A stretch of DNA of 32,863 bases from a virus. Its lineage: Duplodnaviria > Heunggongvirae > Uroviricota > Caudoviricetes. The stretch's first letter is position 1, and each line of letters opens with the position of its first letter. Shown piece after piece: positions 12,901 to 31,495 of the stretch. The stretch is from the IMG/VR virus record IMGVR_UViG_2700989508_000029, one strand, 5' to 3'. The translations under genes and the position numbers were made by a program. A model generated the notes under the pieces. That model made no database searches, had not been told where the DNA came from, and saw only the letters and a program-made list of their open reading frames with translations.

Positions 12901-12917
12901 TGGTGCGATAATAGGAA
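12901..12917. repeat. degenerate third att-like site (tggtgc-gataatagga), putative junction between the two tandem elements
   Basis: Matches 16 of 17 positions of the att core with one deleted C; the left flank (ttgattttcttaa) resembles the flank of the 538 copy; the right flank (atacccccaaaagtacccccaaa, ~12965..12990) resembles the motif between the P4-type int and thrW (acccccataagtaccccca, ~31285..31308). Confidence 0.45.
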
Positions 12918-13257
12918 CAAAACAAACAATAAAAATACATTGATATATAAAGACATTTTCCCATTACATCTTTGTAGATACCCCCAAAAGTACCCCCAAA
13001 CAATTTTCTCTCACCACCATTTGCACATAAAGCAGCCATGTACAACTGGTAGTTGAACAGGCGGGTAGACCGTTCGTTCAGTAAATACCTGATATTTCCG
13101 CCAACGAGAAATTGCGTTGGCTGGCAGAGTGCAAATTTGCACGATAACCTAACCCATTGATTCTTTCGAAAACCCGCAATGCAGGAAGCCGGATAACACC
13201 ATTTTATAGCTCCGATCCCTTCAAAGTGAGGGGTAATTTGCCAAAACAGAGAGAGCA

Positions 13258-13545
13258 TTACTGTCTCTGGCAATCTTTATCGCGATAACGCCTGAAGTAC
13301 CCTCTCGCTTCCTCATCCATACCAAGAGCCGAATGAGTCCGCTTAACTGCCTGTCTTAAATCTCCGAATCTGTCTGTAGTTGCTGGTGGGCGTGCCGCCT
13401 TACGGATACATTCAGAGCGTCTGTTTGCTGCATGTTCACGTTCTTTATCGCCATCTGCCAGCATCATGACTTCTGCCCATCGTGCGGCAGCTCTCCGGTA
13501 TAGCCCTTTTGACTCCAGCTCTTCAGCTTTCCTGTCCTTTATCAT
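13258..13545 (-). CDS. PerC-family transcriptional regulator-like protein (95 aa)
   Basis: N-terminal LESKGLYRRAAARWAEVM resembles the conserved PerC/Pch motif; basic C-terminus. From motif memory. Confidence 0.55.
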   Translation of the reverse strand: MIKDRKAEELESKGLYRRAAARWAEVMMLADGDKEREHAANRRSECIRKAARPPATTDRFGDLRQAVKRTHSALGMDEEARGYFRRYRDKDCQRQ

Positions 13546-13575
13546 TTCTGCCTCTCAGATTATATAGATAAGCAA

Positions 13576-13706
13576 AAAGGTGTTGGTTCAGTTGGTTCAG
13601 TTGGTTCAATTTGTAAAGAGCGTTGTTTTTATTGTGTTTTTTCTAAAATATTGAACCAACATCAACTCATTTTGAACCAACACAGCCCAGCTCTGAACCA
13701 ACAACA
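13576..13706. repeat. iteron module A: three tandem GTTGGTTCA units, an AT-rich spacer, then three inverted TTGAACCAAC units; putative replication-origin-like site
   Basis: Seen in sequence; 13576..13617 is the exact reverse complement of 22113..22154. Confidence 0.7.
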
Positions 13707-13744
13707 CAGCGATAGATTTGCGATTGGTCCGTTATTTTCTGGCT

Positions 13745-13795
13745 GATATTTGAGCGTATAACAGTGTTATACAGTGGTATACTGTATGGATATTA
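13745..13795. promoter_or_regulatory. operator-like palindromes upstream of the RHH regulator gene
   Basis: gtataacagtgttatac (near-perfect palindrome) and ggtatactgtatgg directly upstream of the 13805/13817 start. Confidence 0.35.
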
Positions 13796-13804
13796 CTCAC
13801 TGAT

Positions 13805-14245
13805 ATGGTCTTTGCAATGAGCAAATCTAATCTGATCGCGTTCCGCATCCCATCTGAATTGCAGGATGAGTTTAATCGGTCTGTTCTCGCTTCTGGAGGG
13901 GATAAAACCTCCTGGCTTGTTGATGCGATTCGCATGAAGCTGGGACAGCCGGAAAAGTCTATTGATTCACGAATGCTTGGGCTGGTGGAGCGCATGGAAA
14001 AAGCCGCAGCATCGCTTATTGCCGGAAAGCCGAACATCCCACCAAAGCCATATAACGAAACGGCAGTTATAAAGATCATTGCCGATACCATCCGACAGGG
14101 ATTTGATAATGGGCGTGTGATAGCTGAACGGCTCAATGAAGCAGGCTACCAAACAAAAGCTGGTAAAGCGTGGGATAAAGACATTTACAGCGCGTGGAAG
14201 CGTCAGGATAACAATATTAAAAGAATCAATACGCTGCTTCAGTAA
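13805..14245 (+). CDS. two-domain DNA-binding regulator: N-terminal ribbon-helix-helix (Mnt/Arc-like) plus C-terminal recombinase-type DNA-binding motif
   Basis: SNLIAFRIPSELQDEFNRSVL...WLVDAIRMKL fits RHH; C-terminal IAERLNEAGYQTKAGKAWDKDIY resembles the DNA-binding motif of recombinase-associated domains. Start may be ATG 13805 or 13817. Convergent with the Abi gene. Confidence 0.55.
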   Translation: MVFAMSKSNLIAFRIPSELQDEFNRSVLASGGDKTSWLVDAIRMKLGQPEKSIDSRMLGLVERMEKAAASLIAGKPNIPPKPYNETAVIKIIADTIRQGFDNGRVIAERLNEAGYQTKAGKAWDKDIYSAWKRQDNNIKRINTLLQ

Positions 14246-28964: not shown

Positions 28965-28976
28965 TTTCAGTCTCCG

Positions 28977-29411
28977 TTAGGCGGCGTTAAACGCGTCCGG
29001 GTAGAGTTTCAGAATGTCGGCAATTTCCTGCTGAGAAAGTCCGTTGTGATCATTTATGTTCGCAAGATGGTTAATATGAGTGATCACTTTCAGAACATCA
29101 CCACGGCAGGAGAAACGGTAGCGAAGGTGTGTTCCGATACCATCAGGATTCTTTTCGTCGATACGCTCCAGAGTGATTCCAAGCTGGCGTTCTAACTCTG
29201 TTGCATAGTTACGACCAGAAGACAGACGGCAGTAGCGAAGAATGTCATTTTCTGTCCATCCCTCTATACCAGTACGCAGCATATAGACTCTGGCACGATG
29301 CTTTTTCGGTGTGCGCTTTGGTGCTTGAAGGGATTTTGTAAGGGGCGTAACATCAGATACACGAATATCTGAATTAGCCGCCTGTAATGGGCGGTTTTTC
29401 TTTTCCATCAA
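28977..29411 (-). CDS. hypothetical protein (144 aa)
   Basis: Start overlaps the stop of the AlpA-like gene. Confidence 0.5.
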   Translation of the reverse strand: MMEKKNRPLQAANSDIRVSDVTPLTKSLQAPKRTPKKHRARVYMLRTGIEGWTENDILRYCRLSSGRNYATELERQLGITLERIDEKNPDGIGTHLRYRFSCRGDVLKVITHINHLANINDHNGLSQQEIADILKLYPDAFNAA

Positions 29412-29611
29412 GCCACCTCGTCTCTAGATTCTAATATACACTTCTCAATCCATTCATCTATTTCAGACTCAACAAAAGCAATTGCCCGACTTCCAATTTT
29501 TACCTGTTTAGGGAACCTCCCCTGACTAATAAGACGATAAATCCATGCTTTGCTATAACCAGTTCGCCTTTGAACTTCAGAGAGACGAATTAATGAATTG
29601 TAATTAGCCAT
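29408..29611 (-). CDS. alpA: AlpA-family phage transcriptional regulator / excisionase-like DNA-binding protein
   Basis: 67-aa protein with the typical AlpA helix-turn-helix (LIRLSEVQRRTGYSKAWIYRLISQGRFPKQVKIGSRAIAFVESEIDEWI); position next to a P4-type int. Confidence 0.8.
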   Translation of the reverse strand: MANYNSLIRLSEVQRRTGYSKAWIYRLISQGRFPKQVKIGSRAIAFVESEIDEWIEKCILESRDEVA

Positions 29612-30039
29612 TTATTAATATCCTGTACTAATGACGCAATAACTCCCTCCTGCAACGAATGGCGAGAGTTTTATTTGCGTCAAATGTCGAATACGCCAAA
29701 GACCACAATATGAAAAACATATTGCGGTCTTTTATAAAAGATAGTCAGATTGTTTTGGTTTGTTTGCTCCACAAGGGTAGAGCTACCCTGCATTTCGGCA
29801 GGATCACGCTATTAGGCGTGACATCCAGTAGTTTTAAAGAACAATTGCGCTTTGTCAGCGCCAAAGCCTGTTAAAGAACATTCCGCTTTGTCAGCGACGT
29901 AGAAGGCTCAATACACCTTCGTTTATAAAAGAGCGATTGCCCTTCTCCAGGGCTAACTGTTAAATAGCAATCCTCTGTGAGTTTTTATCAATCTACTCCC
30001 CTATACTTTAGTAAACCTCTGTATACTTGTCCAGTTGTT

Positions 30040-31254
30040 TCATGCGTGTTTTTCAAACACCATATGCACCACATTTCCGCCATGCTCGAGAGAATCCATA
30101 TAGTCGGCATACCATTGAAGCATCTCCCGCCTTCCATCCAGATATTGCGCATGGTTGTATGTGCCACGAATTGAGTTCTTATCAACGTGAGCGAGCTGCG
30201 TTTCTATCCACGCGGTGTTATAGCCCTGCTCATGCAAAATCGTACTCATAGTGTGCCGGAACCCATGACCAGTTACACGTCCAGCGTAGCCAATGCGCTT
30301 AAACACTTGGTTTATGCTGGCCTCGCTCATTGTTTTCCTTGGATCATTGCGCCCGGGAAACATAAGAGGGTAATTGCCTGTTATTTCTCTAATCTTCCCA
30401 ATAAGCGAAAGAGCCTGCTCAGACAATGGCACAATATGAGTCCGCCGCATTTTCATACGTGAAGCGGGTATCTCCCAGATAGCCTTGTTGAAATCAATTT
30501 CATCCCATAATGCGCCACGTAGTTCGCCAGTCCGCAAGCCGGTGATAATCAGTAGACGAGCCGCCATAACAACCAATGCGCTTCCTGAGTAACTGGACAA
30601 TGCCTTGAAAAAATCAGGTAATTCTTTGGCTGTAAGGAAAGGGTAATGATTAGATTCATGGCCTTGCATCGCGCTAGTAAGGTCTGGTGCAGGGTTATAC
30701 TCTGCGCGACCAGTGACTATTGCATAGCGGAAAACTTCCCCGCACCGTTGCCTCACTTTTTTGGCTTTTTCTGTAGCACCGCGCCCCTCGATGCGACGCA
30801 GCACATTCAGAAGTTCAAGTGGTTTGATTTCGGCGATGGGTTTTTTGCCAATGTAAGGGAACACATCTTTGTTGAAGGCTTCGAGGATGTCTGAAGCATA
30901 ACCAGCAGACCATTTTTTTAATTTGCTGCTGTGCCACTCAAGGGCAATATCTTTGAAGGTGTTGTTTAACTGCGTTTCCCGGGCAATCTTTTCCTCTCGT
31001 TTCGCTTCCATCGGATCGATACCACCAGCGATACCTCTTTTCGCATCTTCACGTTTTGCCCGAGCATCGGCTAGAGTAACCTCAGGATAAACACCTAGTG
31101 CCAATAGCTTCTCTTTACCAGCTACACGATATTTAAGTCGCCAGTATTTACCTCCATTAGGTTTTACCAAGAGATACAAACCGCCACCATCGGCCAGCTT
31201 GTAAGCCTTCTCTTTTGGCTTGGCTGTGTCTATTTGACGGGCATTGAGTTTCAC
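30040..31254 (-). CDS. int: P4-family tyrosine integrase (404 aa)
   Basis: N-terminal arm-binding region (KLADGGGLYLLVKPNGGKYWRLKYR), catalytic motifs (RTGELRG...HGFRHT...LAHVDKNSIRGTYNH); next to the tRNA att site. Confidence 0.9.
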   Translation of the reverse strand: MKLNARQIDTAKPKEKAYKLADGGGLYLLVKPNGGKYWRLKYRVAGKEKLLALGVYPEVTLADARAKREDAKRGIAGGIDPMEAKREEKIARETQLNNTFKDIALEWHSSKLKKWSAGYASDILEAFNKDVFPYIGKKPIAEIKPLELLNVLRRIEGRGATEKAKKVRQRCGEVFRYAIVTGRAEYNPAPDLTSAMQGHESNHYPFLTAKELPDFFKALSSYSGSALVVMAARLLIITGLRTGELRGALWDEIDFNKAIWEIPASRMKMRRTHIVPLSEQALSLIGKIREITGNYPLMFPGRNDPRKTMSEASINQVFKRIGYAGRVTGHGFRHTMSTILHEQGYNTAWIETQLAHVDKNSIRGTYNHAQYLDGRREMLQWYADYMDSLEHGGNVVHMVFEKHA

Positions 31255-31264
31255 TTGGGGGTAC

Positions 31265-31419
31265 CTCCACTAAACCGAACAGCAAATACCCCCATAAGTA
31301 CCCCCATCTGACCGTAGATTTTGAGGGACTTTAGTAGACGTCAAAAGACGAACGGGGCTTTAATACGCGGATTATAAGGGGTTTTGAAAGACTTTAGTAG
31401 ACTTGGGGAGATGTTTGAA
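31265..31419. promoter_or_regulatory. attP-derived arm between int and thrW with putative integrase arm-site repeats and the int promoter
   Basis: Direct repeats gactttagtagac (x2) and taccccca motifs between the int start (31254) and the att core. Confidence 0.35.
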
Positions 31420-31495
31420 TGGTGCCGATAATAGGAGTCGAACCTACGACCTTCGCATTACGAATGCGCTGCTCTACCAACTGAGCTATATCGGC
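31420..31495 (-). tRNA. thrW: tRNA-Thr (anticodon CGU)
   Basis: Reverse complement reads GCCGATATAGCTCAGTTGGTAGAGCAGCGCATTCGTAATGCGAAGGTCGTAGGTTCGACTCCTATTATCGGCACCA (76 nt): 7-bp acceptor stem, CGT anticodon, T-arm GGTTCGACTCC, 3' CCA; downstream of proA as in E. coli. Confidence 0.9.

Follow-up and report, generated by a model that had tools for sequence, protein, structure and literature searches.

A satellite of the EcCIMP1 family in thrW of Escherichia coli carries a P22-type ejection-protein operon and candidate mimics of helper pac sites

The stretch of DNA analysed here, IMG/VR virus record IMGVR_UViG_2700989508_000029 (32,863 nucleotides in full, referred to below as the window), represents the proA-thrW region of Escherichia coli and contains, next to the tRNA gene thrW, an integrated element of 18,520 bp (the right element), which is almost certainly a satellite of the EcCIMP1 family riding P22-like phages. 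EcCIMP1 is a phage-inducible chromosomal island (PICI) located in thrW of E. coli MP1, and the window element is a new allelic variant of this known satellite, whose general nature has already been explained (Pick, Stadel and Raivio, ISME J 2025, PMC11773190). The overall picture, that of an EcCIMP1-family PICI in thrW with P22-like helpers, with mimics of the helper pac site and with a functional set of ejection proteins, seems to us probable.

The boundaries of the right element are set by the 3' end of thrW, which direct-repeat analysis found three times in the window (532-561, 12894-12923 and 31414-31443), meaning that two elements are arranged in tandem. The right element extends between two copies of the attachment (att) core GATAATAGGA, which is the same as the core published for EcCIMP1, and the span of 12901-31438 proposed in an earlier, sequence-only reading of this DNA is thus borne out by the repeats. 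Nearly all of its genes are on the minus strand, in the order integrase, AlpA, a 144-amino-acid (aa) open reading frame (ORF), antirepressor, DUF4222, Ash-family/Icd-like, six small ORFs and primase-helicase. The features that define its ends and backbone are the following:

31610-32863, minus strand: proA, adjoining thrW
31420-31495, minus strand: thrW, tRNA-Thr(CGT), found by ARAGORN, with the att core inside its 3' end
31427-31436: att core, thrW-proximal copy, inside the thrW 3' end (repeat copy 31414-31443)
12907-12916, no strand assigned: att core, distal copy, where the right element ends and the tandem left element adjoins (repeat copy 12894-12923)
30040-31254, minus strand: tyrosine integrase (Pfam Arm-DNA-bind_3, Phage_int_M and Phage_integrase)
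29408-29611, minus strand: AlpA regulator (PF05930, E 7e-20), 100% identical to EcCIMP1 AlpA
28131-28964, minus strand: AntA/AntB-type antirepressor (PF08346, E 1e-21), 98% identical to the EcCIMP1 protein
26895-27962, minus strand: Ash-family ORF (PF10554, E 3e-30), marked as incomplete by PGAP
22176-24935, minus strand: primase-helicase of 919 aa (Pfam Zn-ribbon, Toprim_3 and DUF927; phrog_1139, E 2e-178)
22060-22150, no strand assigned: putative replication origin, with 9-nt iterons (three direct, three inverted) on either side of an AT-rich spacer
21690-21722, minus strand: terminator-like hairpin dividing the primase unit from the ejection operon

This organization is that of a PICI. The integrase is placed at one end of the element, beside a tRNA att site with flanking direct repeats, the AlpA gene is found directly downstream of it in the same orientation, and the element has its own primase/replicase with an adjacent iteron origin, consisting of three copies of GTTGGTTCA directly downstream of the primase gene, an AT-rich stretch and three inverted copies. 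With 18,520 bp, no lysis genes and most structural genes missing, the element is also of the size and content expected for a small PICI (about 10-20 kb). The sequence-only reading had described the backbone as satellite-like and P4-type; the first description stands, as the integrase, AlpA, early genes, primase and iterons are all present, whereas the second fits the architecture of the integrase only, the element being a PICI and not a P4-like satellite. The C-terminal part of the Ash-family ORF runs on in another frame as an Icd-like ORF (27106-27324), with phrog_6928 spanning both, and the same split is annotated in EcCIMP1 and in strains XB2 and PKF4; it is therefore conserved and not a sequencing error.

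Excision of EcCIMP1 takes place only upon induction of the P22-like phage Kapi1 and requires alpA and int, AlpA being the master activator, and the island is transduced by Kapi1 (PMC11773190). It is scored as 'Type C' in terms of the SatelliteFinder definition, and its authors considered its 'DNA transfer' and DUF2824 genes to be packaging candidates, without assigning them as a P22 ejection set; packaging was left unexplained (PMC11773190). The window element has the same thrW site, att core and gene order as EcCIMP1, with a nucleotide identity of 97.8% from gp7 to proA; its integrase is 99.8% identical to that of EcCIMP1 (50% to the Kapi1 integrase) and its primase-helicase 99.3%. Given this backbone identity, helper-dependent induction, excision and transfer would be expected of the window element as well. 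The earlier suggestion that an integrative element retains ejection genes and relies on a helper phage for its packaging is thereby supported, as this is a close variant of an island mobilised by the P22-like Kapi1 (PMC11773190). The two islands differ in length (18.5 kb here, 20.0 kb for EcCIMP1), in the gp16 homologue (701 aa here, and an unrelated allele of 906 aa with a transglycosylase domain in EcCIMP1), in the C-terminus of gp20 and in cargo, which comprises SieA-like and AbiD genes here and a lipoprotein, alpA_1 and other genes there. It is this combination of a nearly identical backbone with differing gp20 C-terminus, gp16 and cargo that makes the window element a new allelic variant of an EcCIMP1-type satellite.

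Classical Gram-negative PICIs such as EcCICFT073 and EcCIEDL933 resemble the element in their int-alpA-primase backbone, PerC-like cargo, helper-dependent induction and size (10-20 kb). These islands redirect cos-type lambdoid helpers by means of dedicated packaging proteins, whereas genes for terminase, Rpp, Ppi and capsid are absent from the EcCIMP1 family, which appears to copy the helper pac and adds ejection proteins; the Pfam and PHROG scans turned up no gene dedicated to packaging or to redirecting capsids (small terminase, Ppi, Rpp, capsid morphogenesis) among the ORFs of the element. Capsid-forming PICIs (cf-PICIs) produce heads and packaging enzymes themselves and rely on a helper for the tails. 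They are similar in that the satellite encodes a part of the virion and the remainder comes from the helper, but the window element would borrow heads, tails and terminase and would supply only the internal ejection proteins. P4-like satellites share with it the integrase architecture, AlpA, Ash/Icd-like early genes and the N-terminus of the primase (Zn-ribbon and Toprim_3), which by domain content is of the P4 alpha general kind; the helicase part, on the other hand, is DUF927 here, the helpers are P22-like podoviruses instead of P2-like myoviruses, and no right-element ORF gave a Pfam or PHROG match to psu, sid or delta.

Between the hairpin and the cargo genes lies the ejection operon, which consists of:

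21430-21591, minus strand: 53-aa ORF heading the operon, annotated under the same protein accession in EcCIMP1
20952-21413, minus strand: P22 gp14 homologue, 153 aa (DUF2824, E 4e-61)
20281-20958, minus strand: P22 gp7 homologue, 225 aa (P22_gp7, PF25688, E 6.6e-73)
18860-20281, minus strand: P22 gp20 homologue, 473 aa (Inj_translocase, PF16928, E 4.5e-58; phrog_917, E 5e-112)
16755-18860, minus strand: P22 gp16 homologue, 701 aa (phrog_770 'DNA transfer protein', residues 19-700, E 3e-161)

The four genes overlap by 1-7 nt, and the occurrence of the gp14, gp7, gp20 and gp16 families in the P22 order and in translationally coupled form is far beyond chance. The proposal, made previously from gene sizes and order, that they correspond to the P22 ejection proteins is confirmed by these family matches (E 4e-61, 6.6e-73, 4.5e-58 and 3e-161), as is the accompanying statement that terminase, portal, coat, needle and tailspike genes are absent: scanning the right-element ORFs (12917-31426) against Pfam and PHROG revealed no terminase, portal, scaffold, coat, head-completion, needle, tailspike or lambdoid early region. 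The full P22-like gene sets used for comparison were those of Kapi1, of a complete Sf6-like prophage located at argW in NZ_CP074958, and of HS1, the complete P22-like prophage in thrW of E. coli HS (L014, NC_009800 291741-333340). Of complete genomes, NZ_CP074958 comes closest, with 99.98% identity across the window, and all statements concerning a resident prophage refer to this sister strain.

In the P22-like phages (P22 with its genes 14-7-20-16-sieA, Sf6 with genes 10-13, Kapi1 and N7) the same four families are found in the same order and with the same translational coupling, and a sieA-type gene directly follows gene 16 on the opposite strand. In the element the set follows the satellite replication module, whereas in the phages it is flanked by the tail-needle and tailspike genes; it also comes with a small leader ORF and an upstream terminator of its own, and its proteins are 23-83% identical to those of sequenced phages. 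The leader ORF is preceded by a good ribosome-binding site and by eye looks like a ribbon-helix-helix protein; it had no family match in the PHROG and Pfam scans or in NCBIfam, which likewise gave no match for the ejection proteins. No promoter-like region upstream of the operon was found to be shared when the element was compared by BLAST with Kapi1, the resident prophage and HS1, and a simple consensus promoter scan, which returned fewer sites than in shuffled sequence, was not used.

The closest phage relative is different for each gene. The element gp14 is 97% identical to that of EcCIMP1, 83% to that of Kapi1 and 23% to that of Sf6; gp7 is 98.7% identical to the EcCIMP1 protein and 54-58% to phage gp7 proteins, none exceeding 58%; the N-terminus of gp20 is closest to Sf6, its similarity to EcCIMP1 gp20 being confined to the first 187 residues (48%) with another allele in the C-terminal half; and gp16 is closest to phage N7 (68% by tblastn, compared with 33% for Sf6 and 30% for P22), with no detectable similarity to the 906-aa gp16 of EcCIMP1. 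One P22-like phage contig encodes a gp16 that is 94% identical to that of the element. The ejection genes of the element are mosaics drawn from the same pool as the phage alleles, and the possibility, raised in advance, that the four proteins might show no similarity to podovirus ejection proteins does not apply, all four being clear homologues of their P22 counterparts.

The 18.5-kb element as a whole was recovered, with at least 80% coverage, from 141 of 5,426 complete E. coli genomes, the block from the sieA-like gene to the primase from 178 and the gp7-gp14-origin-primase junction from 237. Its frequency among complete E. coli genomes is about 3-4%, and Shiga-toxin-producing lineages are among the carriers. 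All four ejection ORFs are intact, and pairwise comparisons of satellite copies gave ratios of nonsynonymous to synonymous substitution rates (dN/dS) of 0.18 for gp16, about 0.3 for gp20, 0.19-0.23 for gp14 and 0.10 for gp7 (range 0.10-0.32), similar to the 0.14 obtained for the primase. Judging from these sequence data, the ejection genes are very likely functional and maintained by selection. The module may also be reduced: in strain XB2 the same island has gp20 and gp16 as its only ejection genes, and in strain PKF4 this gp20-gp16 form is located behind a 28%-identical integrase at another chromosomal site, making these two genes the minimal ejection module of the island family. Species-representative genomes yielded 77 loci with related primases: all four ejection genes are found in an element of Leclercia, gp20 plus gp16 in one of Pectobacterium, and in most of the rest PerC comes straight after the primase. 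The ejection module is thus an accessory part gained by some lineages of a wider island family and then kept under selection.

Four short sequences in the element match the small-terminase genes of four types of P22-like phages, all of them oriented with the island genes:

27621-27644, minus strand: pac-like site 1, 24 nt in the Ash region that recur without mismatch in the small-terminase gene of CUS-3/HS1/N7-type phages
21746-21767, minus strand: pac-like site 2, 22 nt of non-coding DNA between the origin and the ejection operon, matching exactly the 683R2/NM-3-type version of that small-terminase segment
15634-15651, minus strand: pac-like site 3, a 17/18 match to the Kapi1 small-terminase gene
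15919-15936, minus strand: pac-like site 4, an 18/18 match to the Sf6-type small-terminase gene, including that of the resident prophage of the nearest complete genome

Sites 3 and 4 correspond to the homologous position of the Kapi1-type and Sf6-type small-terminase genes. Sites 1 and 3 are also present in EcCIMP1, whereas sites 2 and 4 are additional in the window element. Because the pac of P22 is located inside its small-terminase gene, these island copies of small-terminase segments are read as mimics of the helper pac site, a new interpretation which the comparisons below make likely; P22's own pac sequence has no match in the window within 3 mismatches.

Site 1 was initially found as an isolated exact 24-nt match to the HS1 small-terminase gene in a sensitive BLAST search against three P22-like genomes, and the same 24-mer occurs in EcCIMP1, XB2 and PKF4. 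In IMG/VR (2.9 million viral contigs) it has 73 exact matches, 55 in small-terminase genes of the HS1/CUS-3/N7 type and 18 in islands of the satellite family, its carriers having unrelated flanks and some of the island carriers a primase that is 69-75% identical. The variant at site 2 gave 52 matches (37 in small-terminase genes and the rest in satellites), and the motif of sites 3 and 4 at least 95 in small-terminase genes and at least 18 in satellites. Small-terminase genes of Salmonella, Acinetobacter and Pseudomonas phages, gathered for the conservation control by whole-gene BLAST and hence independently of the motif, keep the core with its rare synonymous codons, including a rare ATA codon, while the neighbouring codons vary. 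In 66 related islands of other species the two cores were counted 17 and 18 times on the primase strand and 0 and 1 times on the other, with fewer than 0.2 expected by chance per strand, and in a 5.65-Mb chromosome the 14-nt core occurs only twice, both times in the island.

A distant relative of the element (L060:7900-8030, IMG/VR contig 2843675664_000001) has 3-4 tandem pac-like motifs about 33 bp apart, with both variants mixed. Many of the related islands without ejection genes (L335-L397, from Enterobacter, Klebsiella, Kosakonia, Erwinia, Pantoea, Serratia and others) have oriented cores upstream of the primase, and reliance on P22-like helpers may be common to all of this family of islands with related primases.

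The end of the element beyond gp16 carries the following genes, with a 146-aa ORF between the last two:

16122-16736, plus strand: SieA-like inner-membrane protein of 204 aa, candidate for superinfection exclusion (phrog_7745, weak, E 4e-4)
14275-15297, minus strand: AbiD/Abi_2 abortive-infection gene, defence cargo (PF07751, E 2e-52; PADLOC AbiD, E 7e-58)
13258-13545, minus strand: PerC-family regulator, cargo (phrog_994, E 3e-37; named so by PGAP), 53% identical to the PerC-like protein of EcCIMP1

SieA proteins are inner-membrane proteins with three or four hydrophobic segments and a cytoplasmic FxRYPxEAxxFNK motif, encoded after gene 16 on the opposite strand (PMC10883804). The protein encoded at 16122-16736 has this position and the hydrophobic-segment pattern of known SieAs (residues 8-28, 35-63, 112-141 and 145-177), with RYPGEA at residue 178, where known SieAs have the RYPxEA portion of the motif; it shares 34% identity with type-B SieA from prophage HS1 (E 2e-7) and 29% with P22 SieA, and had no NCBIfam match. 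In the model that we prefer, this SieA-like gene would shield the host, and interference with incoming phage DNA delivery, which the sequence-only reading had offered as a possible role of the ejection genes, would be better attached to it. The slot directly after gene 16 is occupied by lipoprotein genes in EcCIMP1 (L002:12632-13330) and in the Sf6-like prophage (L011:30296-30781) and by a gene for a secreted-looking protein in PKF4 (L013:6897-7337), and looks like a hot spot for exclusion genes. PADLOC recognised AbiD only. The PerC-like protein of EcCIMP1 has been reported to silence LEE (locus of enterocyte effacement) expression, and close matches to the island occur in O26 and other Shiga-toxin-producing strains. 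Together, the SieA-like gene, AbiD and PerC would constitute cargo protecting or modulating the host.

As to what a satellite might gain from ejection proteins, work on P22 is informative. Foreign ejection proteins assemble into P22 particles, gp7 being interchangeable and gp16 and gp20 having to be a cognate pair, so that P22 with foreign gp16 alone or foreign gp20 alone is assembled but non-infectious (PMC10883804). The prophage protein SieA blocks injection via gp16 and gp20, and mutations allowing escape from SieA map to both (PMC10883804), while recruitment of ejection proteins into procapsids is carried out by the helper's scaffold (PMC8402733). Since a satellite profits from entering a helper lysogen that makes SieA, and since the minimal module is the very gp20/gp16 pair that SieA targets, we prefer a model in which the satellite provides its own DNA-delivery conduit. 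The cycle would start as in EcCIMP1, where excision via the integrase following activation of AlpA by the helper lytic cycle has been shown, and the island would then replicate from its iteron origin with its own primase-helicase. The gp14-gp7-gp20-gp16 operon would supply functional ejection proteins, which the helper scaffold would load into procapsids, and the helper terminase would recognise the pac mimics, four being present for four helper types, and start headful packaging from them; a 43.4-kb head would hold about 2.3 island copies. The resulting particles would bear the satellite's own conduit, securing the entry of satellite DNA, especially into helper-type lysogens that make SieA. 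HS1, which has both the exact small-terminase sequence copied by the island and a type-B SieA, is on this account predicted to be a cognate helper that also excludes P22-type injection. That entry of satellite DNA or evasion of SieA is the purpose of the operon is proposed tentatively, as it may well be mistaken; the more specific version, in which the satellite loads its own gp20/gp16 (with or without gp14 and gp7) in order to inject SieA-protected cells and combines this with an array of pac mimics for several terminase types, is somewhat more doubtful.

Several observations weigh against parts of this account. Sites 1, 3 and 4 were first recognised by exact-match searches, which are biased towards conservation, the bias-free controls being the small-terminase genes collected by whole-gene BLAST and the strand counts in the 66 related islands; no literature was found that maps the pac of CUS-3-type or Sf6-type phages to these motifs; and site 1, read in frame in the island as in the small-terminase genes, gives an identical stretch of eight residues, leaving room for an explanation at the peptide level for this site. 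The ejection module is missing from most islands with related primases and is thus unnecessary for mobilisation. The gp16 allele of the satellite is also found in a helper-type phage contig, showing that the alleles are not satellite-specific, and the positions of SieA escape (gp16 G532 and P546, and gp20 338-350) are too divergent to be read in the alignment. Finally, Kapi1 titres are unchanged by EcCIMP1, and transfer amounts to only about 5e3 particles per ml (PMC11773190); an imperfect copy of the Kapi1-type sequence would explain this low transfer, the exact copy in EcCIMP1 fitting another terminase type.

The ejection genes could instead be an anti-phage weapon, non-cognate gp20/gp16 co-assembling into particles that cannot inject and so limiting the spread of the helper. 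The non-infectious P22 particles with a lone foreign gp16 or gp20 are what such a weapon would produce, the satellite proteins are 23-54% identical to those of the co-resident Sf6-like prophage, interference with helpers is common among satellites, and EcCIMP1 raises the protection of lysogens against Kapi1. That protection, however, was against superinfection and not against phage production, the titre of induced Kapi1 is not lowered by EcCIMP1, and poisoned particles would also carry the satellite and harm its own transfer, which makes this explanation unlikely.

Less probable still is that the module is exchangeable cargo, gained by recombination together with a pac-like site and kept mainly to complement helpers with damaged ejection genes. 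It would account for the exchange of gp20, gp16 and downstream-slot alleles among satellites and phages and for the pac-like site directly upstream of the module both here and in Leclercia, and an 'insurance' role has been proposed by the EcCIMP1 authors for the helper-like gene alpA_1 (PMC11773190). Nevertheless, there is no evidence that helper prophages commonly lose their ejection genes first, and the resident Sf6-like prophage of the nearest genome has an intact set.

The weakest explanation, namely that the four genes are the decaying remnant of a P22-like thrW prophage fused by deletion to a neighbouring island, can draw on the occupation of thrW by HS1 in E. coli HS, on the exact P22 order of gp14-gp7-gp20-gp16 followed by an opposite-strand sieA and on short stretches at the gp20/gp16 junction that are 86-97% identical to Sf6, HK620 and P22, but is very improbable given four intact ORFs with dN/dS of 0.10-0.32, an arrangement kept in 178-237 genomes, found elsewhere in the chromosome behind unrelated integrases and present in further genera, a module set off by a terminator as a separate unit with a conserved small ORF at its head, and the absence, in Pfam and PHROG scans, of any needle-gene fragment upstream or tailspike fragment downstream. 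HS1 itself is ruled out as a parent by simple deletion, since its backbone is lambdoid and its identity to the element is only 24% in the integrase and 23-54% in the ejection proteins. Of the alternatives left by the sequence-only reading, the heavily deleted mosaic prophage is accordingly not upheld: the genome comparison that it called for finds the int-primase-ejection arrangement intact in 141-237 complete E. coli genomes, and under purifying selection, and the complete P22-like prophage that does exist at this site is too divergent to be its source.

The left element (562-12893) is a 12.4-kb region of low guanine-cytosine content, in tandem at the same att repeat. Its genes include an integrase (612-1976), tail-fibre/baseplate-like, tape-measure-like and major-head-like genes and an O-like replication initiator, with a dense iteron field at 10350-10740; a terminase or portal was not seen in it. 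In NZ_CP074958, which is otherwise 99.98% identical, the iteron array (10460-10699 in the window) is shorter by about 280 bp, a difference between near-identical genomes which points to a change in repeat copy number between sister strains.

It is known that satellites take over capsids, tails, terminases and regulators from their helpers. One that supplies podovirus internal ejection proteins has been sequenced and mobilised once before, in the form of EcCIMP1, and no other literature was found on satellites with ejection proteins. What is added here is that these genes form a complete and selected P22-type ejection set, that the minimal conserved unit is the gp20/gp16 pair targeted by SieA, and that the island family carries oriented copies of helper small-terminase sequences. 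These points make a previously unexplained module testable, both with regard to the entry of the satellite into helper lysogens and with regard to its packaging, and phages of the CUS-3/HS1/N7 and Sf6 types are predicted to be better helpers than Kapi1. All this concerns a common E. coli element with defence (AbiD and SieA-like) and regulatory (PerC) cargo.

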